64,000 nt of DNA from a bacterium (GTDB taxonomy: Bacteria > Planctomycetota > JAFGQW01). Below, piece after piece: positions 1-36,654 of this stretch. Location of the stretch: contig JAUHXU010000006.1 of assembly GCA_030426805.1 (NCBI GenBank), positions 199,716 through 263,715 on the forward strand, written 5' to 3'. Made by a program: the position numbers and the translations under genes. Under the pieces are notes generated by a model. That model was not told where the DNA came from. It did not search any database and saw nothing but the letters and a program-made list of their open reading frames with translations. Positions within the stretch are counted from its first letter, which is position 1, and the number at the start of each line of letters is the position of its first letter.

Positions 1-888
1 GGCGGGCGGGACGGTCGGCTGGTCTGCGTCGACCTGCGCGCGCACACCGTGTTGTGGCGCAAGCGATTCACCGGCCTCAACGACAACGCGACCGCCCCGT
101 GCCAGTCGGCCGACGCGGTGTTCACCGGCAGCGTCGAGACGGGTCTCTTCCGCCTCGACCCGGTCGACGGGGAACAGCAGTGGCGCGTGCTCGCCAAGGA
201 GGACGAGCACTTCTCGTGGCGCCCGCTTCTCCGCGGCCCGCTCGTCATCGCGGCCGGCGCCCGCGGCGCCGTCGTCGGTGTCATCGCGGAGACCGGTGCG
301 CCGGTGTGGCGCGCGTCGCACGGACCGTTCTCGACGCATCCGGTGGCGAGCGATCGACGTGTGTTCATCGGGCGTCCCTCGGGCGACCTGATTGCGATCG
401 ATCCCACGAGCGGCGAGCTGGTCGGCGTGCAGGACACCGACGGGATTCCGGTCGGCATGCCGGTGATCGCCGACGACGCGCTCGTCGTCGTGACCCGAAC
501 CGGTGCCGTGCACGTGTTCGACGTCGACACGTTCGAGCCGCGATGGCGCGCGCGCGCTGGCGGCGCGACCCGCGCTGCGCCGGTGGTCGCTGACGGCTCG
601 GTCTACGTGACGCTCGGCGACGGTGCGATCGTCCGGCTGCGCCTCTCCGACGGTGCGCGCCTCGCCGAGTCGACCGGCAACGGCACGCCGCTCGCCGGCG
701 GTGCGGTCATCGGTCCCGACGGCCTCTACGTCGGCGGCGAGGACGGTGTCGTGCGGATGTTCGACGGCACATCGCTCGAGGAGTTGTGGGCGACGGACCT
801 CGGTGAGCCGATTCGCGGCGGCCTGGTGCGTTGGGGCGACGCGATCGTCGTCACGACCACCGCCGGCCGGATCTACCTGTTCGAGTAA
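1..888 (+). CDS. PQQ-like beta-propeller repeat protein (BamB-like), 5' partial
   Basis: Open frame runs from the window edge to the stop at 886-888. Repeated 'G.VY..T.DG.L.A.D..TGE..W' blades are typical of PQQ/BamB-type beta-propellers. The ORF track M at 49 is probably internal. Confidence 0.6.
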   Translation, partial: GGRDGRLVCVDLRAHTVLWRKRFTGLNDNATAPCQSADAVFTGSVETGLFRLDPVDGEQQWRVLAKEDEHFSWRPLLRGPLVIAAGARGAVVGVIAETGAPVWRASHGPFSTHPVASDRRVFIGRPSGDLIAIDPTSGELVGVQDTDGIPVGMPVIADDALVVVTRTGAVHVFDVDTFEPRWRARAGGATRAAPVVADGSVYVTLGDGAIVRLRLSDGARLAESTGNGTPLAGGAVIGPDGLYVGGEDGVVRMFDGTSLEELWATDLGEPIRGGLVRWGDAIVVTTTAGRIYLFE

Positions 889-965: not shown

Positions 966-2108
966 GTGAAGGGCTTGGGCAAGGACCTCTTCGCGCAGAT
1001 GCGCCGGAGTCGGCAACTCCGCCAGACGCGCAAACACCCGTCCCCGACGGCGTGGGCGACGCTCGGAGAGCGTCACCTCGCTGCCGGCGAGGCCGACCAC
1101 GCGCTCGCGATCGTCGAAGAGGGTCTACAGGACTTTCCGACGAACGATCGGTTGCTCGCGCTACGCCAGGCGATCCAGAAGGAGAACCTGCGTGAACGCG
1201 TCCGCGGCCTGCGGCAGAGCATCCGTCGCCGACCCGACCCGTATCTCTATGCGCGCCTGGCCGACGTCTTTCGCGAACTCGGAGAGCTGAACAAGGCCGA
1301 GCGGATCGCCGAGGAGTGCAAGGGGCGTTTTCCCGGCGACGAGAACCCCTACCTGGTGATCGGCGAGATCCGAGCGGGGCGGTTCCGCAGCGGGCTGATG
1401 GCCCGTGACGGCAAGATCGCGATCGACAACCTCGAGCAGGCGATCCAGATCAACCCCGAGAACTACAAGGCGCGCCTGCAACTCGCCGAGATCTACGCGG
1501 CGCTCGGAGCGAACTCGCGTGCGCTGCCGCACCTGCTGCACCTCGCCGAGGAGACGCCCGAGGACGCCCACCTGCGGGACCTGATCTCGGAGGTCGGGGC
1601 GCGCCCGGTCGAAGAGGGTGACGTCGCGTCGCTGCTGCGCGTCGCGGAGCGCAAGCGCAGCACCCCGTACGACTTCCACGACGCCGACCGCGGCGTCGAC
1701 GAGGAGGAGTCGGTGGCCCCGTCCGTCGATCTCACCGTGCTGCGTCGCGGCACGATGGCGCTGTTCGCGATTCGCGAGGTGGTCGCCCTGTACGTCGCTT
1801 CTGACGAGCACGGCGTCGTCGAGGCCCGGGAGAATCCCCAGGCCTCGGGTCAATCGTTCCGAGAAGCAGCAGCGAAAATTCTCAAGGCCGCCAAAGCCTC
1901 GTCCCGAAAGATGGATATGGGCGGTTTCGCCAAGGGATTCCTCGAGGGGTCCTTCGGGCGGATCGTCCTGCGTCGTACCCACGGCGTCGAAATCGCGCTG
2001 CTCCTCGAGGGGAGCGCGTCTTTCGGAGCGGTGGCGCGGCATGTGGACGCCTTTTTCGATGGCGTCTTCGGACAGAAGCGGAAGGGCTCTCGTGCAGGAC
2101 GTTCTTGA
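966..2108 (+). CDS. TPR-repeat protein with C-terminal roadblock/LC7-like domain
   Basis: GTG at 966 follows an AGGAG-like tract. The N-terminal half is TPR-like helical repeats (LGELNKAERIAEE..., YKARLQLAEIYAALG). The C-terminal ~110 aa resemble a roadblock/LC7 fold (MALFAIREVVALYVASDEHGVVEAR ... EIALLLEGSASFGAVARHVDAFF). The stop overlaps the next gene. Confidence 0.5.
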   Translation: MKGLGKDLFAQMRRSRQLRQTRKHPSPTAWATLGERHLAAGEADHALAIVEEGLQDFPTNDRLLALRQAIQKENLRERVRGLRQSIRRRPDPYLYARLADVFRELGELNKAERIAEECKGRFPGDENPYLVIGEIRAGRFRSGLMARDGKIAIDNLEQAIQINPENYKARLQLAEIYAALGANSRALPHLLHLAEETPEDAHLRDLISEVGARPVEEGDVASLLRVAERKRSTPYDFHDADRGVDEEESVAPSVDLTVLRRGTMALFAIREVVALYVASDEHGVVEARENPQASGQSFREAAAKILKAAKASSRKMDMGGFAKGFLEGSFGRIVLRRTHGVEIALLLEGSASFGAVARHVDAFFDGVFGQKRKGSRAGRS

Positions 2109-2460
2109 CAACCTGAACCAAGAGCTCGGCGTACGAGGCAGTCTCGTCGTCACCGAGGACGGTGTCGTCGCTGCCGCGAGCCTGCTTCGAGAAGAAGACC
2201 GCGATCTGCTCGGGGCGCTCGCAACGGATATTTCGGCGAAGGTACGTTCCGCGCTTCGCGAGGGCGGGATCGAGGGGCACAAGCGCCTCGTGCTCGATGC
2301 GGAGTACGGTCGAATCGTTCTTTACGACTTGGATGTGGCCGCGCTGGTGGTCGTGCTCGACCGCACGATCAACCCAGACGCGACGATGATAGAGATCGAG
2401 AGCGCCGCGGCGCGAATCCGGCGCGTTGGTCGTTTTACCGCTTCGGCGAACGAAGCATAG
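2092..2460 (+). CDS. mglB: Roadblock/LC7 domain protein (MglB-like GTPase-activating protein)
   Basis: GTG at 2092 is in frame and overlaps the upstream stop. Roadblock signature present: GVRGSLVVTEDGVVAASLLREEDRDLLGALATDIS ... GRIVLYDLDVAALVVVLDRTINP. It sits immediately upstream of the MglA-like GTPase, as in mglBA operons. Confidence 0.65.
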   Translation: MQDVLDNLNQELGVRGSLVVTEDGVVAAASLLREEDRDLLGALATDISAKVRSALREGGIEGHKRLVLDAEYGRIVLYDLDVAALVVVLDRTINPDATMIEIESAAARIRRVGRFTASANEA

Positions 2461-2474
2461 GGGGAGTCCCGGCA

Positions 2475-3509
2475 ATGGTGCAGATCAACTTCGCCCTGCG
2501 GGAAGTGAATTGCAAGATCGTCTATTACGGACCGGGGATGAGTGGCAAGACCACCAACCTGGAGATCGTGCACAAGAAAGCTCCGCAGGAGAACAAGGGC
2601 GACCTCACGAGCATCGCGACCGAAGGCGATCGCACGCTGTTCTTCGACTTCATGCCCCTCGACTTGGGTAACGTCGCGGGCATGCGGACGAAGTTCCAGC
2701 TCTACACGGTGCCCGGCCAGGTCTACTACAACTCGACCCGCAAGCTCGTGCTGCAGGGGGCGGACGGCGTGATCTTCGTCGCCGACTCGTCGCGCTCGAA
2801 GCTCAAGGACAACATCGAGAGTTGGAACAACCTCGTCGAGAACCTGCAGGAGTACGGCAAGGACATCAAAGACGTCCCCGTCGTCGTGCAGTGGAACAAG
2901 CGCGACCTGCCGGACGCGATGGACAAGGAAGAGCTCGAAGAGAAGCTCAACCCGCTCGGCGTTCCGACGTTCGAGGCCGTCGCGATCACCGGCGAGGGCG
3001 TCTTCCCGACGCTGAAGGCACTGAGTGCGCTCGTGCTCGAGAGCCTCAACCGTGGCGGCAGCTCGGCGGCGCCGAGTGAGGCAGCCGAACCGGCAGCGCT
3101 CGCGACGCCTGCTGCGGCACCCGCCGCGGCGGCAGCGACCGCGGCACCGGCTCGCACCGGCGGCGGTGGCGGTGCTTCGCGCATCAGCCGTCCGGTCGGC
3201 GGCGCACCGGGTGCCGGTGGCGCACCGGCCGCCGGCGGCGGGATGGCGCCGCCGGAGGGTGGCTCGGGTCGTACGCCGATGCGGCGTGCACCGCAGCCCG
3301 CGGCTCGCCAACCCGCGGCGGCTGCCGCGACGTCGGCACCGCGCCCGCGTTCGGCTCCGCGTCCGCGACCGGCACAGCAGGCACAGCCCGCACCGGCGGC
3401 ATCGTCCGGCAACCGCGGTCTGATGGTCACGATCATCGTCTTGCTCGTGCTGATCGGCGCGGGTGCCGCGGCCTGGGTGTTCCGAGCGCAGCTCGGCCTG
3501 AACTTCTGA
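2475..3509 (+). CDS. mglA: MglA-like Ras-family small GTPase with C-terminal Ala/Pro/Gly-rich linker and predicted C-terminal TM helix
   Basis: RBS GGGGGAG precedes the ATG. The first ~195 aa are close to MglA (MVQINF..REVNCKIVYYGPGMSGKTTNL, TEGDRTLFFDF, YTVPGQV, QWNKRDL). The frame then continues ~150 aa of low-complexity A/P/G and ends ...NRGLMVTIIVLLVLIGAGAAAWVF. The next gene's RBS and ATG follow directly. Confidence 0.8.
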   Translation: MVQINFALREVNCKIVYYGPGMSGKTTNLEIVHKKAPQENKGDLTSIATEGDRTLFFDFMPLDLGNVAGMRTKFQLYTVPGQVYYNSTRKLVLQGADGVIFVADSSRSKLKDNIESWNNLVENLQEYGKDIKDVPVVVQWNKRDLPDAMDKEELEEKLNPLGVPTFEAVAITGEGVFPTLKALSALVLESLNRGGSSAAPSEAAEPAALATPAAAPAAAAATAAPARTGGGGGASRISRPVGGAPGAGGAPAAGGGMAPPEGGSGRTPMRRAPQPAARQPAAAAATSAPRPRSAPRPRPAQQAQPAPAASSGNRGLMVTIIVLLVLIGAGAAAWVFRAQLGLNF

Positions 3510-3540
3510 GCCGACGCCGGCGCGAAAGGGGAACCCGCGA

Positions 3541-4053
3541 ATGGGACAGGCGAAGTCCGACCAGCGTTTGCGCGAAGAGCGCCTGGTCTTCTACCGCGAG
3601 GACATCGCCCGGATCGACGAGATCCTGGGCGACTTCCTCGACGCGAGCGCCGCGAAGTGCGCGCTGCTCGTCGACAAGGAAGGCCACATGGTCACGAAGC
3701 GGGGCAACACCTCGAGCTTCGACCTCGACACGATCTGCGCGCTCGTCGCCGGCAGCTTCGCCGCGACCAAGGAGATGGCGCGCTTGCTCGGCGAGACGGA
3801 GTTCACGGTGATGTTCCACCAGGGCAAGCGGGACAACATCCAGCTCGCGCTGGTCGGTGATCGCACGCTGCTGACCGTGATCTTCGACGACAAGACCACG
3901 CTCGGCATGGTCCGCCTCTACGCCAACGAGACGGCCAAGGAGCTGACCGAGGTCTTCGAGCGTCGCCTCGGCGCACCGCCTCGCGACAGCGAGAACCTCG
4001 ATCAGGGCTTCTCGACCGGCGCACAGGACGCGCTGGACGACATCTTCGGGTAG
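3541..4053 (+). CDS. Roadblock/LC7 domain protein (second MglB/MglC-like)
   Basis: RBS GAAAGGGGAA precedes the ATG at 3541. Roadblock signature present: CALLVDKEGHMVTKRGNTSSFDLDTICALVAGSFAAT...NIQLALVGDRTLLTVIFDDKTTLGMV. Confidence 0.65.
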   Translation: MGQAKSDQRLREERLVFYREDIARIDEILGDFLDASAAKCALLVDKEGHMVTKRGNTSSFDLDTICALVAGSFAATKEMARLLGETEFTVMFHQGKRDNIQLALVGDRTLLTVIFDDKTTLGMVRLYANETAKELTEVFERRLGAPPRDSENLDQGFSTGAQDALDDIFG

Positions 4054-4160: not shown

Positions 4161-4937
4161 ATGAACATCCGTCCTGCCGTCGCGGCCCTCGCGACGCTCC
4201 TCGCCCTCGGTGCCACCGCCACGACCCAGCTGTCGGTCGAGGTGAAAGGCCCCGTGCCGCAGGGGAGCAACGTCTTCACCTACATCGAGGCGACCGTACC
4301 GACCGAGTTGCGCAGCGCGTGTCCCGAGGAGATTCGCGCCGGAAGCCCGATCGGCCCGGTCGTTCGTGGTCCCGGCCCGTGCATCCTGCTCCTCGTCGTC
4401 GTCGGGCCGAACAGCCCGTACACGAACCTCGGTTGGGACGGGCGGGACTCGAACCGGGCGCCGGTCGCCCCCGGCACCTACTACATGAAGATCGCCCACC
4501 GCCCGGTGAACACCAACGTGCCGTGGACCGATCACTGGGTGCCGGTGCACATCACCCCGCAGACCCCGCCGCTCGGCCCGCTGCTGTCGGCCCCGGCGAT
4601 GACGAGCGGCCAGACGTGGCCGATCTCGCTCAGCGATGCGGCGAATCCGTCGGCCTCCTACTGGATGGCCGCGTCGTTCACGACGAACCGCGGGTTCGGT
4701 TTCGGGCCGGTGCACATCGCGCTCGACATCGATCCGCTGTTCCTGCTGTCGTTCCCCGCGCCGAACCCGGCGATCTTCTCGGGCTTCCAGGGCGTGACCG
4801 ACAACGCCGGCAACGCGAGCGCGTCGATCTCGGTGCCGCCGTTTGCGCCGCGCGGCCTCCAGGTGTGCGTGCACGCGATCGTGCAGAACGGTTTGACCGT
4901 CAACGCGACGAACCCCCTCACGCGCGTCGTCCGGTAA
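4161..4937 (+). CDS. Secreted hypothetical protein, paralog family A copy 1
   Basis: Signal peptide (MNIRPAVAALATLLALGATA). Motifs SACPEEIRAGSPIGPVV, PGTYYMKI, YWMAAS, LDIDPLF, GFQGV are shared with 27262..28050 and 28277..29062. Confidence 0.7.
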   Translation: MNIRPAVAALATLLALGATATTQLSVEVKGPVPQGSNVFTYIEATVPTELRSACPEEIRAGSPIGPVVRGPGPCILLLVVVGPNSPYTNLGWDGRDSNRAPVAPGTYYMKIAHRPVNTNVPWTDHWVPVHITPQTPPLGPLLSAPAMTSGQTWPISLSDAANPSASYWMAASFTTNRGFGFGPVHIALDIDPLFLLSFPAPNPAIFSGFQGVTDNAGNASASISVPPFAPRGLQVCVHAIVQNGLTVNATNPLTRVVR

Positions 4938-4984: not shown

Positions 4985-6331
4985 ATGGCGAAGATCATGG
5001 TCGTCGACGACGAGGCGGGGATCCGCGACTCCCTCGAGCTGATCCTGCAATACGAGCGGCATCAGATCGCCAAGTGCGCGGATGCGAAGGAGGCGCTCGC
5101 GACGCTGCCGTCGTTCGAGCCGGACCTCGTCCTGCTCGACGTCGTGATGCCCGGGATGACGGGCATCGAGCTGCTCGAACGCATCCGCGGCGATCGGCCT
5201 GACCTCGACGTGATCATGGTGTCCGGGCACGGCGACGTCGAGACCGCGATCGCGGCGACCGAGCACGGCGCGTTCGACTTCATCGACAAGCCGCTGGAGC
5301 GCGACCGGCTGCTCGTGTCGGTGCGCAACGCGCTGCGCCACAGCCAGATGCGGCGCGAGATCGCGAGTCGCTACCGGATGGTCGGCGAGAGTCCGGCGTT
5401 GCGGGCGATGCTCGCCGACGTGGACCGGGTGGCGCCGAAGGACGCGGGCGTGCTGATCGTCGGCGACAACGGCAGCGGCAAGGAACTCGTCGCCCGCAGG
5501 ATCCACGAGTTGAGCGGACGCAGCGACGGGCCGTTCGTCGACGTGAACTGTGCGGCGATTCCGCGGGATCTGATCGAGAGCGAGCTGTTCGGACACGTGC
5601 AGGGCGCGTTCACCGGCGCCGATCGCGACAAGGCCGGGAAATTCGAGCAGGCCGATCGCGGCACGCTGTTCCTCGACGAGGTCGGCGACATGGGGCTCGA
5701 GAGTCAGGCGAAGGTCCTCCGCGTGCTGCAGGAGCGCAAGGTCGAGCGCGTCGGCGGTAGCGAGACGATGCACTTCGACGTCCGGGTGATCGCGGCGACG
5801 AACAAGGACCTCCAGGAGGAGGTCGCGGAGGGACGATTCCGCGAGGATCTCTACTACCGCCTCAACGTCGTGCCGATCCGCGTGCCCTCGCTGCGCGAGC
5901 GCACCGAGGACATCCCGGCGCTCGTCGACTACTTCCTGCACGATGCGGCGCGCCGCAACGGCGTGCACCCGGCGCCGACGCTGACGGACGCGGCGCTCGC
6001 GGTGCTCCGCGGCCGGGAGTGGCGCGGCAACATCCGCGAGTTGCGCAACGTCGTGGAGCGCTTCGTGATCCTCGGGCCGGCCGACACGCTGGACGCCGGC
6101 GACATCGAGCGCTTTCTCGCGAAGACCGCGGACACCGTGTGGAGCCTGATCGACTCGGTCGAGACGTTCGAGGAGTTCAAAGAGAAGTCCGAAGCGATGT
6201 TCTTCCGTCGCAAGCTCGACGTGAACGGGTGGAACATCAAGCGCACGTCGGACTTGCTCGGCATGCAGCGCTCGAACCTCTACAAGAAGATCGAGCGCTA
6301 CGAACTGCGCAAGCCAGACGCCGACGCGTGA
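4985..6331 (+). CDS. Sigma-54-dependent Fis-family response regulator (NtrC-like)
   Basis: Receiver domain (MVVDDEAGIRDSL...LLDVVMPGMTG). AAA+ sigma54-activator motifs present (GDNGSGKELVARRIH, GAFTGA, ESELFGH). C-terminal Fis-type HTH. Confidence 0.9.
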   Translation: MAKIMVVDDEAGIRDSLELILQYERHQIAKCADAKEALATLPSFEPDLVLLDVVMPGMTGIELLERIRGDRPDLDVIMVSGHGDVETAIAATEHGAFDFIDKPLERDRLLVSVRNALRHSQMRREIASRYRMVGESPALRAMLADVDRVAPKDAGVLIVGDNGSGKELVARRIHELSGRSDGPFVDVNCAAIPRDLIESELFGHVQGAFTGADRDKAGKFEQADRGTLFLDEVGDMGLESQAKVLRVLQERKVERVGGSETMHFDVRVIAATNKDLQEEVAEGRFREDLYYRLNVVPIRVPSLRERTEDIPALVDYFLHDAARRNGVHPAPTLTDAALAVLRGREWRGNIRELRNVVERFVILGPADTLDAGDIERFLAKTADTVWSLIDSVETFEEFKEKSEAMFFRRKLDVNGWNIKRTSDLLGMQRSNLYKKIERYELRKPDADA

Positions 6332-6360: not shown

Positions 6361-8124
6361 ATGCGTCCGATCGCTCTCGTTCTGTTCGTCCTGGCGATCG
6401 CAGCTGGTGCGACCGCGTTCGTGTTGCTCTCGGGGGACGGGCCGGCGACGGTCGGCCCGGCACGTGGCGACACCCAGGAGCCATCCGACCCGGGGCGCGC
6501 GTCGCCGGCCCCGCCGGCCGAGAAGAAAGCGGCCGAGAAGACCGCCCCGCAGCCGCATGGGCCGGACACTGCGGCGCCGGAGACGGCGGTCGCCCCGGTG
6601 CGGGTCGTGTCGCGTGCGACGTCGAAGGCGATCGCCGGCGCGACGCTCGCGCACGGGGACCGGACGTGGCGCACCGACGCCGACGGCCGCGCGTCGGCAC
6701 CGATCGGCGTGTCGGTCCGCGTCGAGGCGCCGGGGTTCGTGACCGGCATCGCGCGCGTGACGACTCGCGACGGTGTCGGCCGCATCGCATTGCCGGCGGC
6801 CGCGACGATCACCGGCATCGTCCGCGATCCGACGACGACCGCGGTCGCGGGCGTCTCGGTGCGAGTCGCGATCGCGACCGAGTCACCGCTACCCGATCCG
6901 GAGGGGTTTGCCGTGATCGTCCCGCCGATCGGCGTCGTCACCGGAGCCGACGGCCGATTCGAGGTGAGCGCACCCAGCGCGGTGCCGCTCGTCGTGGACG
7001 CACTCGGCGGCTTCGGCGGTCCGGCTCGCTATGGGGCGACCCTCGCCCTCGGCCCCGGTGAGCGACGGGAGATCCAGCTGCCGTTTCGGCCGGCGGGCGT
7101 GCTGCAGGGGACCGTCCTCGGGGCCGGCGGCGCACCGGTCGCGGGCGCGACGATCACCCTCGGCGGGACGGCGGACGTCGCCCTGTCGGTCGACGGCTAC
7201 TCGCGAACCGCCGAGACCGCCGACGACGGTGGGTTCGCGATCGATGGGGTTCCGCTCGGCGCGTGGCGACTCGTCGCGTCCCCACCGGCCGGTGCCCGAT
7301 TCGCGGCGGCGGTCGCGACCGTTCGAATCGACAAGCACGGAGAGGTCGCGACCTCACAAATACGCCTCGAAACCGGGCGGACGATTCGCGGCCGCGTGCT
7401 CGGTCCGCGTGGGGCGCCGGCGGGTGGCATTCCCGTCGAGGGGTCGTGGCCGGGCGGGCTCACCGCGCGGAGCGCCGCCGACGGGACCTTCGCGGTCGGT
7501 CCGGTGCCCTCGGGCGCACACCGCGTGCGGGCGCTCGGCACCGGCGAACTGGGCAACAGCCGATGGACCGACGTCGCCGCGGACGACACGACGGTCGAGC
7601 TACGCCTGACGGTCGCCGGGAACGTCGCGATCGCCGTGACGGGCCCCGACGGCAAGCCGGTCGCCGCGACCGTCGAACTGCGGTCGGTCGATTGGGGGCT
7701 CGACGAGGCCGCGACGACGCAAGCGCGCGAGTTGCGCGACGGCTCGGCGCGGTTCGGACCGATCGCCGAGGGCCGTTACATCGCGATCGTCCGCGACCAG
7801 AAACGCTACGCGCTCGACGGCCCGTTCGCGGTGACCGCCGGTGCCGAGACGACGCGCACGATCGTGCTCCGCGACGGTGCGCACGCGACGATCGTCGTGA
7901 AACAGCCTGCGGGTGCGCCGCCGATCGAGCAGCCGGTCGCGAAGATCGTGTGCGACGGCATCCAACTCGCGCGCGGGCCGGTCGGTGCGTTCAAGGCGTT
8001 TCAGGTGCCGGCGAGTCGCCGTGTCGCGATCCGCGTCGAGTATCGACAGGGTGGCGTCGACAAGCACATCGAGCACCGGTTGTCGCTGCCGAACGGGACG
8101 AACGAGTTCGTCGAGGTGCCGTGA
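6361..8124 (+). CDS. Membrane-anchored protein with carboxypeptidase-regulatory-like (CarboxypepD_reg) repeats
   Basis: N-terminal TM/signal (IALVLFVLAIAAGATAFVLL). Repeated 'G.V.D....PVAGA.V.L' beta-sandwich modules. Paralogous to 17145..19292. Confidence 0.6.
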   Translation: MRPIALVLFVLAIAAGATAFVLLSGDGPATVGPARGDTQEPSDPGRASPAPPAEKKAAEKTAPQPHGPDTAAPETAVAPVRVVSRATSKAIAGATLAHGDRTWRTDADGRASAPIGVSVRVEAPGFVTGIARVTTRDGVGRIALPAAATITGIVRDPTTTAVAGVSVRVAIATESPLPDPEGFAVIVPPIGVVTGADGRFEVSAPSAVPLVVDALGGFGGPARYGATLALGPGERREIQLPFRPAGVLQGTVLGAGGAPVAGATITLGGTADVALSVDGYSRTAETADDGGFAIDGVPLGAWRLVASPPAGARFAAAVATVRIDKHGEVATSQIRLETGRTIRGRVLGPRGAPAGGIPVEGSWPGGLTARSAADGTFAVGPVPSGAHRVRALGTGELGNSRWTDVAADDTTVELRLTVAGNVAIAVTGPDGKPVAATVELRSVDWGLDEAATTQARELRDGSARFGPIAEGRYIAIVRDQKRYALDGPFAVTAGAETTRTIVLRDGAHATIVVKQPAGAPPIEQPVAKIVCDGIQLARGPVGAFKAFQVPASRRVAIRVEYRQGGVDKHIEHRLSLPNGTNEFVEVP

Positions 8125-17144: not shown

Positions 17145-19292
17145 ATGCGAGATCCCATCGCCCCCACACCGCTCCCCTCGCCCTTCGCCCGACGCACGGC
17201 TGCCGCGTGCGCGTTCGCGATCCTCGTCTCGCTGCTCGCGGCCTGCGGCGGCGGGAGCGAGCCGACCGACGAGGGGCGCCGCGCACCGTCCGACCCGGTC
17301 CCGCCGCCGGCGGTGGAGGAGGGGCGCGGATCCGACGGGGCGAGGCCCGGAAACGCCGGCGGAAATGACGGCGGAAGCGGCGGCGGAACCGATGGCCGCG
17401 CGAGCGACGACGAGCAGGCCGAGCGCGCCGGGCCACGTGGCCGCGTCGTCCGCACGGACGGGGGCGACTTGCGGGACGTGATCGTCCGGTTGCGTCAGCG
17501 CCGGGCCACGCTCGAGGAGGTGCGTTGCGACGCGAAGGGGCGATTCGCCTTCCGACGCATGCCCGAGGGGCCGCACACGGTCGCCGTCACCGCGCCCGGG
17601 TTCTTCCTGCACGGCCGGCGGCTCCTCGAACCGACGACCGAACCGCTCGAGATCGTGATCCGACCCGGGCAGTTCCTCGGCGGGATCGTGTCGACCCCGC
17701 GCGGCGAGCCGATCACGCGCTATTCGCTCGAGGCGATTCGCGTGCGCAAGGACGGCACGACGCGCACCGCGATCGACATGACGGTCGAGGCGGACGACGG
17801 TCGCTTCTACACGGCGGGGTTCGTCCCGGGCGAGTGGTGGGTAGTCATCCGCGCCGAGGGGTATTCGGCAGCCGCGTCGCGCCTCGTCGTCGGGCGCGTG
17901 ACCCCGCCGGCGCTCGACGTGCGATTGCGACCGGGCCGAGACGTGAACGGCTTCGTCCTCGAAGACGAGACCTGTGCACCGATCCCGGGGATTCGCGTCG
18001 CGATTCGCCCCAAGCGGCTCAACGACCTTCCGGATTCGATCGGTCTCGCGAGCGCCGTCACCGACGCAGACGGACGCTTCGTCGTGACCGACGTGCCCAA
18101 CGAAGCGGTGGTCGCGACGCTCCTCGCGCCGGAGTTGATCGCGCGCACGGCCGTGCCGCTGGGCTACCCCGGCCCGCGGCCGCGCCTGCTGCTGGCCCGG
18201 CGCGGTGCGACGCTCGACGGCGCGCTGTGGAATCGGCGCGGTCAGCCGGGCGCCGGTCGGCCGGTGCAACTGCGCGGACTCGTCTCGCGAGACGTCACGA
18301 CCGACGACGAGGGGTGCTTTCGCGCGACCGGCTTGCGCACGGGCACGTATCGCCTGCGATCGGGGGCGTGGGGCGGGGTGTTCGAGTTGCAGCGCGGGTT
18401 CTCGTTTCGCTACGACCTGATCGCACGCGATTCACCGATCTGTGCCGGCGTCGTGACGGCCGCCGGGGCGCCCTACTCCGGCGCGTCGGTGCGGATCGGC
18501 GACCCCGCGAAGGGCCCGGTCCGCTGGGCGCCGGTCGGGGCCGACGGCCGCTTCGGCCTCGACGGCGTGCGCCCCGGGGCGCGGCGCGTCACGGTGACGA
18601 ACCGCTTTGGCCACGTCGTGTATGAACGCGAACACACGTTCGCGAGCGGGAAGACCGTCGACGTCGCGTGTGCGCTGCCGGCCGGCCGCGTCGAAGGGCT
18701 GGCGGAGGCGTCGCTGACCGCCCGCCCGCTCGCCGGCACCACCGTGGCCCTGATTCCGCTCGCCCAGGCGGGATCCGGTCGACTCCCGCCGCGGATCCTC
18801 GGCGGCACGCCGCTGCGCGTGGCGCGCGACGGGATCTTCCGGTTCGACCACGTGCCGGCGGGGCGCTACGCGCTGTTCGCGTGGCGTGACGGATACGCGG
18901 TCGCCCGCCACGACGGGATCGTCGTCGGGCCGGGCGAGACGGTGGGGCCGATGCGCGTGCCGATCCACGGCGGCGGGATCGTGCGGGGCAACGTGCGCGT
19001 CGGGTCGCGGCCTGCGGGCGCCGTGGTCCGGCTGCTCGACGCCGACGGACGACCGTTGGGGCGGCCGGGCCGCGCGGTCGAGACGCGGGACGGCAGCTTC
19101 GTCTTTCGCGGCGTGTCGCCCGGCCCGCACACGCTGGTCGTCACGCGGCACGGGTGCTTCGAGCATCGCCGCCGCCTCGCCGTGACCGCCGGTGGCAACC
19201 CGCGCCTGCGGATCGCGCTCGATCAGCTTCCGGCGCGCGCGAGCCAGCCGTCGACCGACCCGACGAACGTGTCGAAGACCTCCGGCCGGTAG
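17145..19292 (+). CDS. Membrane-anchored protein with carboxypeptidase-regulatory-like repeats
   Basis: N-terminal TM (AACAFAILVSLLAACGG). Repeated CarboxypepD_reg-like modules (VVRTDGGDLRDVIVRL..., GIVSTPRGEPI..., GFVLEDETCAPIPGIRVAI...). Paralog of 6361..8124. Confidence 0.6.
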   Translation: MRDPIAPTPLPSPFARRTAAACAFAILVSLLAACGGGSEPTDEGRRAPSDPVPPPAVEEGRGSDGARPGNAGGNDGGSGGGTDGRASDDEQAERAGPRGRVVRTDGGDLRDVIVRLRQRRATLEEVRCDAKGRFAFRRMPEGPHTVAVTAPGFFLHGRRLLEPTTEPLEIVIRPGQFLGGIVSTPRGEPITRYSLEAIRVRKDGTTRTAIDMTVEADDGRFYTAGFVPGEWWVVIRAEGYSAAASRLVVGRVTPPALDVRLRPGRDVNGFVLEDETCAPIPGIRVAIRPKRLNDLPDSIGLASAVTDADGRFVVTDVPNEAVVATLLAPELIARTAVPLGYPGPRPRLLLARRGATLDGALWNRRGQPGAGRPVQLRGLVSRDVTTDDEGCFRATGLRTGTYRLRSGAWGGVFELQRGFSFRYDLIARDSPICAGVVTAAGAPYSGASVRIGDPAKGPVRWAPVGADGRFGLDGVRPGARRVTVTNRFGHVVYEREHTFASGKTVDVACALPAGRVEGLAEASLTARPLAGTTVALIPLAQAGSGRLPPRILGGTPLRVARDGIFRFDHVPAGRYALFAWRDGYAVARHDGIVVGPGETVGPMRVPIHGGGIVRGNVRVGSRPAGAVVRLLDADGRPLGRPGRAVETRDGSFVFRGVSPGPHTLVVTRHGCFEHRRRLAVTAGGNPRLRIALDQLPARASQPSTDPTNVSKTSGR

Positions 19293-32550: not shown

Positions 32551-35500
32551 TCAGAGGCCGCGTGGGTCGCCGTCGACGAAGCGGTCGAGTTCCGGCGTGC
32601 CCCGCCGCACGCCGGCGCGGTAGGCCGACGTCACGAGCACGGCGGGCCACAGGCGACGGCGGAGGGCGAGGCCGAAGTAGTGCGCCGCCTCGTCGCCGTT
32701 GCCCGCCAGCGCGTGCAACTCCGCGGCACGGCTCGCCGCGATCGGATCGCCGATCGCGTCGGCCGCGTCTTCGAGGCACTCGAGTGCGTTCGGACGATCA
32801 CCGGCCGCCGCGAGCGCGAGGCCGAGGAGCAGGTTTCGCACGCCCTCGCGCGTCTCGTCGGTCTGGGTCGGCAGGGCACGCGCGGTCGCGACCGAGCGGT
32901 CGCCCGCGAGGATCGCCTGGAGGGTCGTGCGAACCGCCGGCGTCGTGTCGTCCGCGCGGCCCCACGCGATCAGCAGTGCGTGGTAGCCGAGCCACCAGGC
33001 GCGCACGACGCCCGGGATCTCCGCGTCGCGCACCGATTCCCAGCGTCCTCGCGCGGCGTCCACCCAGAGGCGCGCCAAGACCAGCTCCGGCGCATCGACC
33101 GTGCCATCCAGGTCGTCGACGGCGGCGGCGAGCCCGTCGATCCCGCCGGTCTCGTGCGCGAGCCACAGGCGCACGAGCGCGCTCCGCCGCGTGGGCGCGA
33201 GTGCCGCGGCGAGCGTGCGCGCTTCGTCGTCGTCGCCGTTGGCGAAGCGGCAGAGCACGCGGAACTCCTGGCGCACATCGCCGTTGATCCCGTGCAGGCG
33301 CGAAGCGTCCTCGAAGTCGGTAGCCGCCCGGTCGACGTCGAGGCGGTTGAACCGACAGATCGCGCGGTGCACGACCGACCAGCCGCCGCGATACCCGGCG
33401 TCGATCAACTCCGCGTAGAGGCTCTCTGCGCGAGCGAAGTTGCGTGCGGCGAAGTTGAGGACCGCCAGGCCGTGGACGAACTCCGGGTCCCGGCGGATCG
33501 CGATCGCCGCGCGAAAGTCCGCGGCGGCGTCGTCGGGTGCGACGCGCATTCGCAGCTGTGCGCGGCGGGCGAGCAGGATCGCTCGCGTCGAATCGCGGAG
33601 CCGCGTCGCTGCGAGCGATCGCTCGACGAGCGCGAGGGCCGCGCGGACCTGCCGGCGTTTCATGTGCAACGAGATCAGGGCGAGCACCGCGCGGTCGGTC
33701 GGGGCGCGCTCGACGGCGCGGCCGAGATCGGCTTCGGCGTCGTCGAAACGGCGCGGATCGATCGCGAGCAATTCGCCGCGGCAGATCAGCAAGCCGACGT
33801 CGTCGGGGTGGCGCTCGATCGCTTCGTCGAGGAGCGCGAGGCCCCGTGCGCGCGTATCCGGTCGCGCGCACCACACCCGCGCGATGCCGCGGATCGCGTG
33901 GGTCGAACTCGGGACTTCCTCGCGCACCCGCTGGAAGTCGCGGAGCGCGTCGTCGAAGGCGGCGACCTCGACCGGAATGCACGAGAAGCCGCGCTGCACG
34001 TAGGCGCGCCACAACCGAGGAGCCGCATCGATCGCGATCGTGAACTGGTCGCGGGCTTCGCGCGGTTGATTGAGTCGGGCGAGTGCTTCGCCGACGAAGA
34101 ACGTGATCGCCGTCGACCGCGGCCAGCGCTTGCGCGCGGCCCGCGCCGCGTGCAGTGCCGCTTCGGCGTGGCCCGACGTGATGTGGTCGGCGATCGCGAG
34201 CGTCGCGTCGAGGCGCGTCGCCGGTTCGGCTGCGCGGATGCGGGCGCGAATCGGGGGCAGCTCGTCGGATCGGTCGAGCGCCCACAGCGCGCGGGCGCGG
34301 ATCAGGTCGGCCGCCAGCGAGGCGTCGCCTCCGTGAGCGGATGCGCGTGCGAGCGCGTCCGCCGGCCGGTCGGCGACGACGTCGTGGATCGCGCGGAGCA
34401 ACTCGACGCGCGGACGATCCGGCAGCGACGCCAGCGCTGTCGTGACGCGGTCGTCGAGCAGCGACGCACCGTCGACGTACGCGAACTCGACCGCCAGCGC
34501 ATCCTCGCAGTGGTCGAGGGTGCGCTCGACGATCGCCGCGTCGACGCGTGCGAGCGCCGGGCGCACCCGGTCGGCGGCGCCGGCCGAGTCGATCGCCTCC
34601 CGATACGTCGCGCGTGCGGCGTCGAGGTCGCCGGTCGCCTCGAAGGCCGCGCCGCGGCGCAGCAGCCGCTCGGCGAGGGCTTCGCGATCGCGGTCGCGGG
34701 CGCGGCGCTCGACGATCGCCCACGTCACGATCGCGATCACGACCGCCACGAGCACGCCGGCGGCGAGCGTCGCGACCGGGCGACGCCGTGCGCGTCGCCA
34801 CAAGCGACCGGCCGGCCCGACGCGCGATGCGACGACGGGCTCGCCGTCGCGGAATCGGATCAGGTCGTCGCGGAACGCCGCGGCGCTCGCGTAGCGAAGG
34901 CGCGGTTCCTTCTCGAGCGATCGTTGGATCACGTTCGCGAGGTCGCGCGGCAAACGCCGGTCGACGCGATCCAGCGGCGGTGGGTCGTGGTGCAGAACGC
35001 GATTGAGCGTCGTCGCCGACGTGCCCCCGTCGAATGCGAGGTGGCCGGCGAGCGCTTCGTAGAGCGTCGCTCCGAGGGCGAACACGTCGGCGCACGCCGT
35101 CGCGTCCTCGCCGGCGATGCGCTCCGGCGCGATGTAGCTCGGAGTGCCGAGCAGGTGCCCCGAAGCGGTGAGCGACTGCGACGACGCCTCGCGCGCGAGC
35201 CCGAAGTCCGCGAGGTGGGGCGCGGCGGTGCGGTCGAGCAGGATGTTCGCCGGCTTCACGTCGCGATGGATCAGCCCGTGCTCGTGCGCGACGTGCAGCG
35301 CGTCCGCCACGTCGATCCCGATCGCGACGATCGAATCGACCCAGCCGCGGATGCCGCCGGGGCTCGGCGCCGGCCCGTCGCTGCGCAGGACCCGGTGGAG
35401 CCCTTCGCGCGTGCGCTCGGGGTTCGCGCGCAAGACGCCGTGCAGTGACTCGCCGTCGATCCACTCCATCGCGAGGTAGAGGAAGCCGTCCTCGTCGCCG

Positions 35501-35934
35501 AAGGAGTGCACGCGAACGATCGCCGGATGGGTCAACCGTGCTGCGAGTGCGGCCTCGCGCTCGAACCGTTCGCGAAGCGCCGCCGTCGCCGCGTAGCCCG
35601 GCGGCAACACCTTGACCGCGACCGTGCGGTCGAGGACCGGTTGGTAGGCGCGATACACGATGCCCATGCCGCCGCGGCCGATCTCGTCGCCGATCTCGAA
35701 CTCGCCGAGTCGTCGGGGGCCGTCGGTCTGCAGCGCCGCGGGCCCCATCGGCGTCGCGGCGGGAGCGCTCGCACCCTCGAGGTCGGCGAGGACGCGTATC
35801 TCCCGCAGGACCGAGTCCGCGTGCACCGGATGCCGGCGGCGAAACGAGGTCTCGTCGAGACGGTCGTCGCCGAGCAAGTCGAGTGCCTCCTCGAGGGCGC
35901 GGAGGCGTGCGGGATCGGGCTCGGGGGTCGTCAT
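32551..35934 (-). CDS. Serine/threonine protein kinase with TM segment and extensive TPR repeats
   Basis: Hanks kinase motifs GRGGMGIVYRA, VAVK, HRDVKPANILL, DFGLA, GTPSYIAPE. TM helix (LAAGVLVAVVIAIVTWAIV). About 700 aa of TPR-like repeats follow. Confidence 0.9.
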   Translation of the reverse strand: MTTPEPDPARLRALEEALDLLGDDRLDETSFRRRHPVHADSVLREIRVLADLEGASAPAATPMGPAALQTDGPRRLGEFEIGDEIGRGGMGIVYRAYQPVLDRTVAVKVLPPGYAATAALRERFEREAALAARLTHPAIVRVHSFGDEDGFLYLAMEWIDGESLHGVLRANPERTREGLHRVLRSDGPAPSPGGIRGWVDSIVAIGIDVADALHVAHEHGLIHRDVKPANILLDRTAAPHLADFGLAREASSQSLTASGHLLGTPSYIAPERIAGEDATACADVFALGATLYEALAGHLAFDGGTSATTLNRVLHHDPPPLDRVDRRLPRDLANVIQRSLEKEPRLRYASAAAFRDDLIRFRDGEPVVASRVGPAGRLWRRARRRPVATLAAGVLVAVVIAIVTWAIVERRARDRDREALAERLLRRGAAFEATGDLDAARATYREAIDSAGAADRVRPALARVDAAIVERTLDHCEDALAVEFAYVDGASLLDDRVTTALASLPDRPRVELLRAIHDVVADRPADALARASAHGGDASLAADLIRARALWALDRSDELPPIRARIRAAEPATRLDATLAIADHITSGHAEAALHAARAARKRWPRSTAITFFVGEALARLNQPREARDQFTIAIDAAPRLWRAYVQRGFSCIPVEVAAFDDALRDFQRVREEVPSSTHAIRGIARVWCARPDTRARGLALLDEAIERHPDDVGLLICRGELLAIDPRRFDDAEADLGRAVERAPTDRAVLALISLHMKRRQVRAALALVERSLAATRLRDSTRAILLARRAQLRMRVAPDDAAADFRAAIAIRRDPEFVHGLAVLNFAARNFARAESLYAELIDAGYRGGWSVVHRAICRFNRLDVDRAATDFEDASRLHGINGDVRQEFRVLCRFANGDDDEARTLAAALAPTRRSALVRLWLAHETGGIDGLAAAVDDLDGTVDAPELVLARLWVDAARGRWESVRDAEIPGVVRAWWLGYHALLIAWGRADDTTPAVRTTLQAILAGDRSVATARALPTQTDETREGVRNLLLGLALAAAGDRPNALECLEDAADAIGDPIAASRAAELHALAGNGDEAAHYFGLALRRRLWPAVLVTSAYRAGVRRGTPELDRFVDGDPRGL

Positions 35935-36054: not shown

Positions 36055-36654
36055 ATGGCGACCGATCCGCAACTCACTCAGGAGATCGTCGACGCGATTC
36101 GCGCGGGCGACCGCTCGGCGTTCGACGCGCTGTTCAACCGCGTGGGCGGCAAGGTCTACGTCTACATCTTCAACAAGCTGGGCGATCGGCTGCGGACCGT
36201 CGTCGAGCCGGAAGACGTGCTGCAGGACGTCTATGCGACCGCGTTCTCGTCGTTCGACGACTTCGTGAGTCGCGGCAGCGGGTCGACCGCACGGTGGCTG
36301 ATCGGGATCGCCCGCAATCGGATTCGTCACCTCTACGGCCACCACTTCGACCATCAGAAGCGCGATCCGCGTCGCGAAGTGCCCCTCGACGGCGGCACGT
36401 CGGCGACCGAGATCCCGCTCGCGAGCGACGAGCCGTCACCGAGTCGCGTGATCGCACGCGACGAGGAGGTGCAGCGCCTCGCGACCGCGCTCGCCGAGTT
36501 GTGCGACGAGGACCGCGCGGCGATCCTCGCCCACTTCGAGGGCGAGTCGATGGCGGTGATCGCCGAGCGCGCGGGCGTGCCGCGCACGACGATGCTCTAT
36601 CGCGTCTCCCAGGCGTTGCAGCGGCTCGGCGGCCTGGTCCGGGACGACGACTGA
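36055..36654 (+). CDS. ECF-type RNA polymerase sigma factor (sigma-70 family)
   Basis: Sigma-2 region pattern (DVLQDVYATAFSSFDDFVSRGSGSTARWLIGIARNRIRH). Sigma-4 HTH (ILAHFEGESMAVIAERAGVPRTTMLYRVSQALQRL). Divergent from the kinase gene. Confidence 0.8.
   Translation: MATDPQLTQEIVDAIRAGDRSAFDALFNRVGGKVYVYIFNKLGDRLRTVVEPEDVLQDVYATAFSSFDDFVSRGSGSTARWLIGIARNRIRHLYGHHFDHQKRDPRREVPLDGGTSATEIPLASDEPSPSRVIARDEEVQRLATALAELCDEDRAAILAHFEGESMAVIAERAGVPRTTMLYRVSQALQRLGGLVRDDD

Follow-up and report, generated by a model that had tools for sequence, protein, structure and literature searches.

Introduction

A locus of an uncultured planctomycete in which a small GTPase gene of the MglA type lies among genes for roadblock/LC7 proteins raises the question of whether it encodes a compact version of the Myxococcus polarity system or a switch built to another design. 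In the Myxococcus model of front-rear polarity, soluble MglA is captured at one pole and relocates through the cytoplasm. A first-pass annotation of the 64-kb window, the whole stretch of DNA analyzed here, had suggested a differently wired MglA/MglB/MglC system in a planctomycete-like organism. The closest relatives were indeed Planctomycetota MAGs, and the module proved to be a differently wired relative of that of Myxococcus, but no evidence was obtained for an MglC assignment. MglA proteins longer than 240 aa were left out of the principal survey of small GTPases in prokaryotes (PMC4316618), and no description of a membrane-tethered MglA/MglB variant was found in the searchable literature. 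Our analysis modestly favors reading the locus as a conserved set of five genes encoding a variant MglA/MglB small-GTPase polarity module, in which the GTPase would be resident in the membrane.

Results

Gene content and conservation of the locus

Four consecutive forward-strand genes were found with exactly the boundaries annotated at first pass, and three roadblock-domain proteins flanking a genuine mglA were likewise recovered. The end of a further gene (gene 0) upstream of the block and the C-terminal membrane anchor predicted for MglA had both been missed in that annotation. The features are as follows.

1..888, + strand: gene 0, 3' end, C-terminal PQQ/BamB-like β-propeller (PQQ_2, 1.6e-23)
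966..2108, + strand: gene 1, TPR-roadblock fusion, 380 aa
2092..2460, + strand: gene 2, small stand-alone roadblock/LC7 protein, 122 aa (Robl_LC7, 6.5e-10)
2475..3509, + strand: gene 3, MglA, 344 aa
2475..3065, + strand: part of gene 3, MglA G domain, aa 1-197
3066..3419, + strand: part of gene 3, disordered basic Ala/Pro/Gly/Arg-rich leash, aa 198-315
3420..3509, + strand: part of gene 3, C-terminal hydrophobic helix (aa 316-336), 8 further residues and the stop, predicted tail anchor
3541..4053, + strand: gene 4, MglB ortholog, 170 aa, roadblock GAP including the C-terminal helix (Robl_LC7, 5.7e-12)
4161-4937: 258-aa ORF between gene 4 and the NtrC-type regulator
4985-6331: NtrC-type regulator

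Full-length homologs were identified for all four proteins (genes 1 to 4), and the gene order was kept in the relatives examined, even where the identity of the TPR-roadblock protein fell to 25-65%, which argues that the block is more than a chance arrangement and settles in the affirmative the earlier question of its conservation. Names recovered among the homolog clusters included Zixibacteria, Gemmatimonadota, and Longimicrobiales. A scan for promoters and terminators gave no signal exceeding shuffled expectation, Rfam returned no RNA family within the window, and PADLOC returned no defense-system match.

Identities of the roadblock proteins

Gene 4, which had been listed simply as another roadblock protein, matched M. 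xanthus MglB (6izw_B) with 105 bits (E 2.8e-29) over aa 14-169, including the C-terminal helix, and T. thermophilus MglB with 85 bits. It also matched the NCBIfam MglB model NF052242 (107 bits, E 8.3e-31), at a score below the 200-bit equivalog cut-off of this Thermus-type model. Judged from these matches, gene 4 is a true MglB ortholog, and the order in the block is consequently mglA followed by mglB, the reverse of that in Myxococcus. As in Thermus and Myxococcus, the MglB dimer would be expected to switch MglA off by stimulating GTP hydrolysis.

The label "MglB-like" had instead been attached to gene 2 and thus to the wrong gene. Gene 2 is a roadblock protein that passed the PF03259 gathering score (39.1 bits vs 23) and had 13 homologs at 74-98% identity; its best PDB matches were Asgard roadblocks (E 3e-4 to 6e-3). 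Searches with the sequence of gene 2 alone and with the profile of its family retrieved no MglB chain at E≤10, and there was no NCBIfam match. Similarity to MglC (7cy1) was detected neither for gene 2 nor for the C-terminal domain of gene 1, so that neither extra roadblock can be assigned to MglC, as had been proposed.

The proposed fusion of TPR repeats to a roadblock domain in gene 1 was substantiated and is conserved in relatives. The protein comprises a TPR/solenoid region (aa 4-229, nt 975-1652), a disordered hinge (aa 230-255), and a C-terminal roadblock fold (aa 256-368, nt 1731-2069) with the arrangement α-β-β-α-β-β-β-α. Whereas genes 2 and 4 matched the Roadblock/LC7 profile, the C terminus of gene 1 gave no match to Pfam PF03259 at E<0.1 in the window protein, although the fold is present; the positional counterpart of gene 1 in locus L038 passed the same model (24.6 bits vs a cut-off of 23). 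An exhaustive profile search with this domain yielded 20 matches at E≤1e-3, most of them in proteins of about 370-385 aa that carry it C-terminally. Comparison with the gene 2 family by hhalign gave an in-register but weak match (probability 4.6%), and the assignment therefore requires the evidence of the fold.

The first 17 nt of gene 2 are also the last 17 nt of gene 1. Such an overlap was retained in all relatives examined (17, 17, 4, 4, and 8 nt), and in L038 and L043, too, the small roadblock gene shares an overlap with the gene upstream of it. Genes 1 and 2 may thus be translationally coupled and form a roadblock heterodimer, which could serve as a second platform for the GTPase, acting as an exchange factor, anti-GAP, or adaptor, with the TPR arm potentially docking other proteins.

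Architecture of the GTPase

Residues 1-197 of gene 3 aligned with the MglA structures of M. xanthus and T. thermophilus (5ymx, 3t12) with 243 bits and were approximately 60% identical to the MglAs of motile bacteria. The P-loop (G19-T27), R53, T78, Q82, and N141-K-R-D144 were invariant across relatives. The features that define group 1 MglA are all present, namely a G1 motif GxxxxGKT, a G3 motif TxxGQ containing Thr78 and Gln82, the intrinsic Arg53, and a G4 motif NKxD, together with an mglB homolog located 31 nt downstream. By its sequence, gene 3 contains a complete MglA G domain with the catalytic residues of the family. In size and composition, however, it departs from the single-domain soluble MglA of about 190-200 aa (150-240 aa in PMC4316618), since it extends to 344 aa with a linker and a hydrophobic helix.

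The extension begins with a leash of approximately 118 disordered residues between the G domain and the C-terminal helix, rich in alanine (33%), proline (17%), glycine (15%), and arginine (10%) and carrying a net charge of +9 (aa 198-320). Both the sequence and the length of the leash varied among relatives, with the reading frame intact to the tail. The C-terminal helix LMVTIIVLLVLIGAGAAAWVF (aa 316-336) consists of 21 hydrophobic residues, has a Kyte-Doolittle mean of 2.59 over 19 aa, and ends 8 aa from the C terminus. Gene 3 therefore has the layout of a tail-anchored protein, with a single hydrophobic helix no more than about 30 residues from the C terminus and no N-terminal signal. A hydrophobic C-terminal tail was common to 119 of the 120 best database homologs of MglA, despite their unrelated linker sequences.

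An artifact of gene calling in GC-rich DNA could in principle produce such an extension, as could a disordered tail with a hydrophobic end used for protein contacts, and the linker DNA does have features that would suit an artifact: its GC content is 77%, frames are open on both strands, and its codon-position GC is atypical (GC3 of 0.71 vs 0.91 in the G domain). Against these readings, no stop codon interrupts the frame between the G domain and the tail, either in the window sequence or in over 100 homologs, and whatever the length of the linker, a hydrophobic segment of about 20 residues invariably closes the frame, 2-9 residues from the stop. Basic residues usually lie on the N-terminal side of this segment, as expected of tail anchors. 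We therefore regard a non-anchoring extension as highly improbable. MglA appears to be fixed to the membrane via a long flexible leash, with insertion predicted by hydropathy alone. The helix would insert as a tail anchor that leaves the N terminus of MglA in the cytoplasm, so that the protein would be permanently tied to the cytoplasmic membrane while the leash allows its G domain to sample tens of nanometers of cytoplasm.

Gene order and a sister clade

Gene order was compared across 87 MglA loci, including 80 metagenome loci that were the best-scoring ones and not a random sample. The metagenome scan was carried out with the MglA alignment, as the diverse gene 1 alignment contained no conserved peptide stretch. 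The order roadblock-mglA-mglB was found in 28 of 31 scorable loci encoding an extended MglA versus 0 of 28 loci encoding a short one, and mglB lay downstream of mglA in 30 of these 31 loci. All short-MglA loci (28/28) displayed the order mglB-mglA.

A sister clade of extended MglAs, one member of which is named Zixibacteria, carries a basic-aromatic C-terminal motif in place of the transmembrane tail, with ends including KKKRGFFKRLFGIK and KGFFLWRFFKKLLNR, and this provides independent support for membrane targeting of extended MglA. In all nine sister-clade loci with enough flanking sequence (9/9), pilB directly follows mglB. Within L038, PilB scored 723 bits against a cut-off of 676, and PilT 493 bits against one of 319. 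The PATAN protein of this pilus-linked clade is 396 aa long and is devoid of the extra TPR and β-propeller domains found in the clade with the transmembrane tail.

The upstream and downstream neighbors

Gene 0 encodes a PATAN(DUF4388)-TPR-β-propeller protein of approximately 1,050 aa whose start lies upstream of the window. The full gene on the same contig (L001, 1256-4414) contains DUF4388 at aa 4-168 (2.7e-16), TPR at 245-308, and PQQ_2 at 885-1030; its N-terminal part, outside the window, passed the PF14332 gathering score (60.1 bits vs 25). A conserved gene 0 also precedes the block in L002-L009, L011, and L020. PilB1 and PilC are binding partners of the PATAN domain in Synechocystis (10.1101/2021.06.11.447907), and the occurrence of PATAN genes near mglA and mglB is an association already published (PMC4316618). 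The PATAN protein may be an adaptor that connects the module, on its output or its input side, to an envelope machine, for which the type IV pilus motor is the most probable candidate.

Downstream, the sigma-54 NtrC-type regulator noted at first pass is present, although the 258-aa ORF intervenes. Its place after the block is shared by the window and the close relatives L002-L005, and no such regulator adjoins the block in L006-L008 or the metagenome loci; the regulator is a lineage-specific neighbor only.

Discussion

Relation to characterized systems

The module resembles that of M. xanthus and T. thermophilus in its group 1 MglA G domain (Wuichet & Søgaard-Andersen 2015), scoring about 243 bits with the P-loop, Arg53, Thr78, and Gln82, in its cognate roadblock GAP MglB with a C-terminal helix, and in the adjacency of the two genes on the same strand. 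It differs in the length of MglA (344 aa vs approximately 195 aa), owing to the disordered leash and predicted transmembrane tail, in the order of mglA and mglB, and in the inclusion of two further roadblocks and a PATAN scaffold in the block; genes for RomR, RomX, or Frz were not observed. Gene 2 is comparable to MglC, the MglB paralog of M. xanthus (7cy1), in being a small stand-alone roadblock of about 120 aa without obvious MglB-type features. Unlike MglC, whose gene sits away from mglBA and to which it has no detectable similarity, gene 2 lies directly upstream of mglA and is putatively coupled in translation to the TPR-roadblock gene. Similar to the regulators PatA, PixG, and PixE and to the PATAN genes reported next to mglA and mglB (Makarova 2006; Wuichet 2015), gene 0 encodes an N-terminal PATAN/DUF4388 domain beside mglA and mglB, but the domain is fused here to TPR and a β-propeller (~1,050 aa) and not to a receiver domain. 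The Streptomyces conservon (CvnA-D) is likewise a four-gene operon containing a roadblock protein and a membrane-linked MglA-family GTPase. Membership in this group was rejected because the histidine kinase CvnA and CvnC (DUF742) are absent from the block; moreover, the G domain here has kept the group 1 MglA Arg finger and Gln, and membrane attachment would occur via the GTPase itself.

Parallels with eukaryotic GTPases are offered as analogy only. Rab and Ras proteins carry a hypervariable linker and a lipid anchor, and the combination of a small G domain, a flexible low-complexity linker, and a C-terminal anchor is shared by Rab/Ras/Rho, tail-anchored Miro, and the protein described here. 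The anchor in our case is, however, a predicted transmembrane helix (a basic-aromatic motif in the sister clade) rather than a prenyl group, with no GDI-type extraction. In the Ragulator-Rag system, LAMTOR roadblock heterodimers scaffold membrane-bound GTPases. Here the predicted anchor is on the GTPase itself and not on a scaffold subunit, the G domain is of the MglA type, and the heterodimer is putative.

Output of the module and alternative readings

Taken at its most plausible, by a narrow preference, the locus encodes an MglA/MglB switch that resides in the membrane and is joined by a second roadblock platform; its probable task is the control of type IV pili or of polarity. MglA-GTP would mark the membrane site at which an envelope machine assembles. 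The link to type IV pili is drawn from the adjacency of pilB and pilT in the sister clade and from the PATAN domain, not from genes near this locus: no pilus or other motility gene was found within the window or in the flanks of the transmembrane-tail-clade loci. That absence, which extends to every locus of this clade, would suit the same anatomy serving another output, such as the choice of a budding or division site, placement of a holdfast or stalk, choice of a flagellar pole, or secretion. The additional TPR and β-propeller domains of this clade's PATAN protein point the same way, as they suggest partners different from those of the pilus-linked version. Such an output is nevertheless unlikely, if still deserving of attention, because the only experimentally known PATAN partners are components of the pilus motor (10.1101/2021.06.11.447907) and in the sister clade the homologous module lies inside a pilB-pilT cluster.

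The remaining readings depart further from the evidence. The first-pass annotation envisaged a compact, soluble MglA/MglB/MglC system with mglB before mglA, an MglC-like third roadblock, a TPR scaffold, and NtrC as part of the wiring. Three roadblock domains and MglA are present as it supposed, and NtrC does follow the block in the window and its close relatives. However, the identities of the genes, with gene 4 and not gene 2 being MglB, already contradict this version, as do the conserved membrane tail on MglA, the failure of the upstream small roadblock to match either MglB or MglC, and the loci in which NtrC does not adjoin the block; we consider it very unlikely. A comparably low probability attaches to a membrane-identity system independent of pili, in which, by analogy with Rag/Ragulator or Arf and its coats, a tethered GTPase and roadblock dimers would recruit the PATAN-solenoid/β-propeller protein as a scaffold that marks membrane domains or gives them shape. 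The same module beside pilB and pilT in Zixibacteria-type contigs argues against it, as do a G domain typical of MglA and close to those of motile bacteria, and a search of the neighborhood that found no membrane-remodeling genes. If it were true, the module would represent a GTPase regulator for planctomycete membrane complexity and a G domain-linker-anchor design in bacteria.

Implications

An MglA fixed to the membrane could not work in the manner of the Myxococcus model and would provide a second design for comparison. In the sister clade, the module is tied directly to PilB and PilT by its genomic setting. The finding fills the gap left by the reference survey's exclusion of MglA proteins longer than 240 aa with what appears to be a large, multi-phylum class that combines a membrane-fixed MglA with mglA placed before mglB, two additional roadblock proteins, and a PATAN scaffold. 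It also suggests that a G domain joined by a flexible linker to a membrane anchor, an arrangement like that of eukaryotes, occurs in proteins related to what has been proposed as the ancestor of Arf-like GTPases.

RESULTS

The five-gene block and its neighbors

The window opens on a five-gene polarity block encoding an MglA GTPase that carries a long C-terminal extension and a predicted membrane anchor. The same contig in a public assembly shows that the window begins inside gene 0, whose 1,052-aa product combines a DUF4388/PATAN domain (aa 4-168) with TPR repeats and a PQQ/BamB-like β-propeller. The remaining genes and relevant neighbors are listed below.

Features of the block and of the rest of the window
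966-2108, + strand: gene 1, TPR-roadblock protein (ORF listing)
2092-2460, + strand: gene 2, small roadblock protein (ORF listing; Pfam Robl_LC7, 6.5e-10)
2475-3509, + strand: gene 3, extended MglA (ORF listing; Pfam Arf/Gtr1/Ras-type G-domain matches)
3541-4053, + strand: gene 4, MglB (ORF listing; Pfam Robl_LC7, 5.7e-12)
4161-4937, + strand: 258-aa ORF between gene 4 and the NtrC-type regulator
4985-6331: NtrC-type sigma-54 activator (Pfam)
6361-8124 and 17145-19292: CarboxypepD_reg-repeat proteins
32551-35934, - strand: 1,127-aa Ser/Thr kinase with TPR repeats, divergent to the next gene
36055-36654, + strand: ECF-type sigma factor

Genes 1 to 4 are close-packed on the + strand exactly where the first-pass annotation had placed them, with a 17-nt overlap between genes 1 and 2, gaps of 14 nt (genes 2/3) and 31 nt (genes 3/4), and purine-rich ribosome-binding sequences ahead of the starts. 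GC3 in the called frames is 0.72-0.94, in line with real genes in DNA of ~69% GC. The order PATAN-TPR-propeller, TPR-roadblock, roadblock, extended MglA, MglB, which extends by one gene the block whose conservation had been left to comparative genomics, recurs in six further contigs, three of them NCBI MAGs in which gene 1 is only 25-29% identical, and the gene 1/gene 2 overlap is retained in all of these (17, 17, 4, 4, and 8 nt). The NtrC-type regulator, initially noted as following the region, is a neighbor and not a component, because it follows the block in close relatives only.

Several features around the block vary among relatives. The 258-aa ORF (GC3 0.93; signal-peptide-like N terminus, MNIRPAVAALATLLALGATA...) matches no Pfam or NCBIfam family and lies between mglB and the regulator in this lineage only; in the relatives L002 and L003, the regulator directly follows mglB with no gene called between. 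The small roadblock-mglA gap is 14-26 nt in the window's clade and a non-coding 200-356 nt in two other relatives (L006, 8644-9001; L007, 8800-9001), where it could hold an internal promoter or regulatory element. Large CarboxypepD_reg-repeat proteins recur near the module in several relatives, including L006 (15736-17859) and L008 (10750-13980, directly downstream of mglB), reflecting either a functional link or just shared ancestry.

Assignment of the roadblock proteins

The "MglB-like" label had been given to gene 2, with gene 4 described as another roadblock. These labels were swapped and the order is roadblock, mglA, mglB, because gene 4 matches MglB and gene 2 matches neither MglB nor MglC. 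Against the solved Myxococcus xanthus MglB, gene 4 aligned almost from end to end, C-terminal helix included (105 bits, E 2.8e-29), and it scored 85 bits against Thermus thermophilus MglB. None of the other three proteins matched the NCBIfam MglB model, to which gene 4 aligned at 8.3e-31, under the equivalog cut-off. PDB searches with gene 2, run both with the sequence alone and with a profile of its family, found neither an MglB nor an MglC chain at E≤10, and its best relatives there were Asgard archaeal roadblocks (E 3e-4 to 6e-3).

The proposed TPR-roadblock fusion in gene 1 proved real and conserved. Pfam placed TPR repeats at aa 27-208 and no roadblock match in the C-terminal 130 aa, for which a PDB profile search gave only a marginal match. 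An AF2 model of this region (10 homologues; pLDDT 72.8, pTM 0.68) had the topology α-β-β-α-β-β-β-α, and in the full-length model, 12 helices (aa 4-229) lead through a disordered hinge into a roadblock domain (aa 256-368). Within the window, an HMM of the C-terminal domain weakly matched gene 2 (E 1e-3), and the positional counterpart in the distant, Zixibacteria-type locus L038, a 287-aa TPR protein, has a C terminus passing the Pfam Robl_LC7 gathering score. Full-length homologues numbered 11, at 61-93% identity, and recognizable counterparts extended to 25-29%.

Extended MglA proteins as a separate class of module

Residues 1-197 of gene 3 are, by sequence, a textbook MglA, scoring 243 bits against the M. 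xanthus and T. thermophilus structures (5ymx and 3t12) and carrying the P-loop, Arg53, Thr78, Gln82, and NKRD motif. What follows went unremarked in the first-pass annotation: a ~118-residue stretch enriched in Ala, Pro, Gly, and Arg, with a net charge of +9 and no hydrophobic residues, then LMVTIIVLLVLIGAGAAAWVF and a final eight residues. The lengths of the 120 top-scoring database homologues all fall within 316-401 aa, and 119 of these proteins carry, 2-9 residues short of the C terminus, a hydrophobic 19-mer (Kyte-Doolittle ≥2.2), usually with basic residues just ahead of it; linker sequence and length vary freely, and the reading frame is always retained. Homologue lengths, the near-universal tail, and the kept frame rule out a gene-call artefact. 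Where sources name them, these homologues are Planctomycetes or Planctomycetota MAG proteins. We infer that the tail would act as an anchor, holding MglA at the cytoplasmic membrane by a flexible leash. In two extended MglAs of still greater length (L029, 8001-9530, 509 aa; L031, 5705-7171, 488 aa), a very hydrophobic segment lies 118-147 residues ahead of the C terminus and is followed by another Ala/Pro-rich stretch; in this position, a long tail would protrude beyond the cytoplasmic membrane.

Scanning metagenomes with generic MglA peptides yielded 80 loci, which are best tblastn matches and not a random sample, and these were scored with HMMs made from the five proteins, counting only loci with long enough flanks. 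Extended MglAs (≥215 aa) had a gene 2-type roadblock upstream and MglB downstream in 28/31 loci, and short MglAs (189-209 aa) had MglB immediately upstream in all 28, with no case of the other order. In a neighbor-joining tree of G domains, the transmembrane-tail proteins fell in one clade. A second extended clade, with one member named candidate division Zixibacteria, has no hydrophobic tail; its proteins terminate instead in basic-aromatic motifs (e.g., KKKRGFFKRLFGIK, KGFFLWRFFKKLLNR), which we read, after MinD and FtsA, as putative amphipathic membrane-targeting helices. The strongest argument that the extension may serve membrane attachment is the occurrence of two distinct predicted membrane-binding devices on the same kind of leash. 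A third arrangement (L044, L046, L053, L055, L085; named cluster members Gemmatimonadota and Longimicrobiales) consists of a small roadblock, a weakly MglB-like roadblock, and a short MglA (202-209 aa), has a PATAN gene downstream in most cases, and may be intermediate between the classical and extended modules.

Association with type IV pilus genes

L038 is arranged as ComEC, PATAN (396 aa), a 127-aa protein, TPR-roadblock, a 316-aa protein, roadblock, extended MglA, and MglB, directly followed by PilB (TIGR02538; 723 bits, cut-off 676) and PilT (493 bits, cut-off 319). PilB follows mglB in 9/9 loci of this clade with enough flank. In Synechocystis, the binding partners of PATAN domains include PilB1 and PilC (10.1101/2021.06.11.447907), and PATAN genes near mglA and mglB were noted earlier (PMC4316618). 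Because no pilus gene adjoins the module in the window's own clade, we can only infer a pilus output for this organism. Elsewhere in the window lie genes for housekeeping and envelope proteins and for the Ser/Thr kinase beside the ECF-type sigma factor, a pair that fits the planctomycete-like signaling genes remarked on earlier.

Members of the pilus-linked clade encode an additional protein of 309-316 aa between the TPR-roadblock and small roadblock genes (L043, 6688-7617; L038, 6713-7663), and its gene overlaps the start of the latter; that of L043 has a weak C-terminal roadblock match, so the pilus-linked module may hold four roadblock domains. A weak PATAN HMM match (L032, 1991-2134; 16 bits) in the N terminus of the PilB gene fits the resemblance, already pointed out in print, between the helical insert of PATAN and the beginning of the PilB N1 domain.

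DISCUSSION

By homology, this locus is an MglA/MglB system. It differs from those described in how its MglA is built, in the order of its genes, in its additional roadblock partners, and in a fused PATAN scaffold. Full-text literature searches turned up no account of an MglA anchored in the membrane or of MglA modules in planctomycetes, and the reference survey of prokaryotic small GTPases left out sequences of >240 aa, 39/488 in the MglA clade (PMC4316618). What the analysis shows is the identity of the genes, their folds, their conservation, and their associations; in the mechanism we propose on top of these, MglA would reside in the membrane, alternating between GTP and GDP states, with the MglB dimer as its GAP. 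Genes 1 and 2 would be made in equal amounts through translational coupling and together provide a second, probably heterodimeric, roadblock platform. This platform would target MglA or MglB, working as an exchange factor, anti-GAP, or adaptor while its TPR arm recruits partners. The PATAN-TPR-propeller protein would then link the switch to an envelope machine. Such a module should be of moderate-to-high interest to those working on bacterial polarity and small-GTPase evolution.
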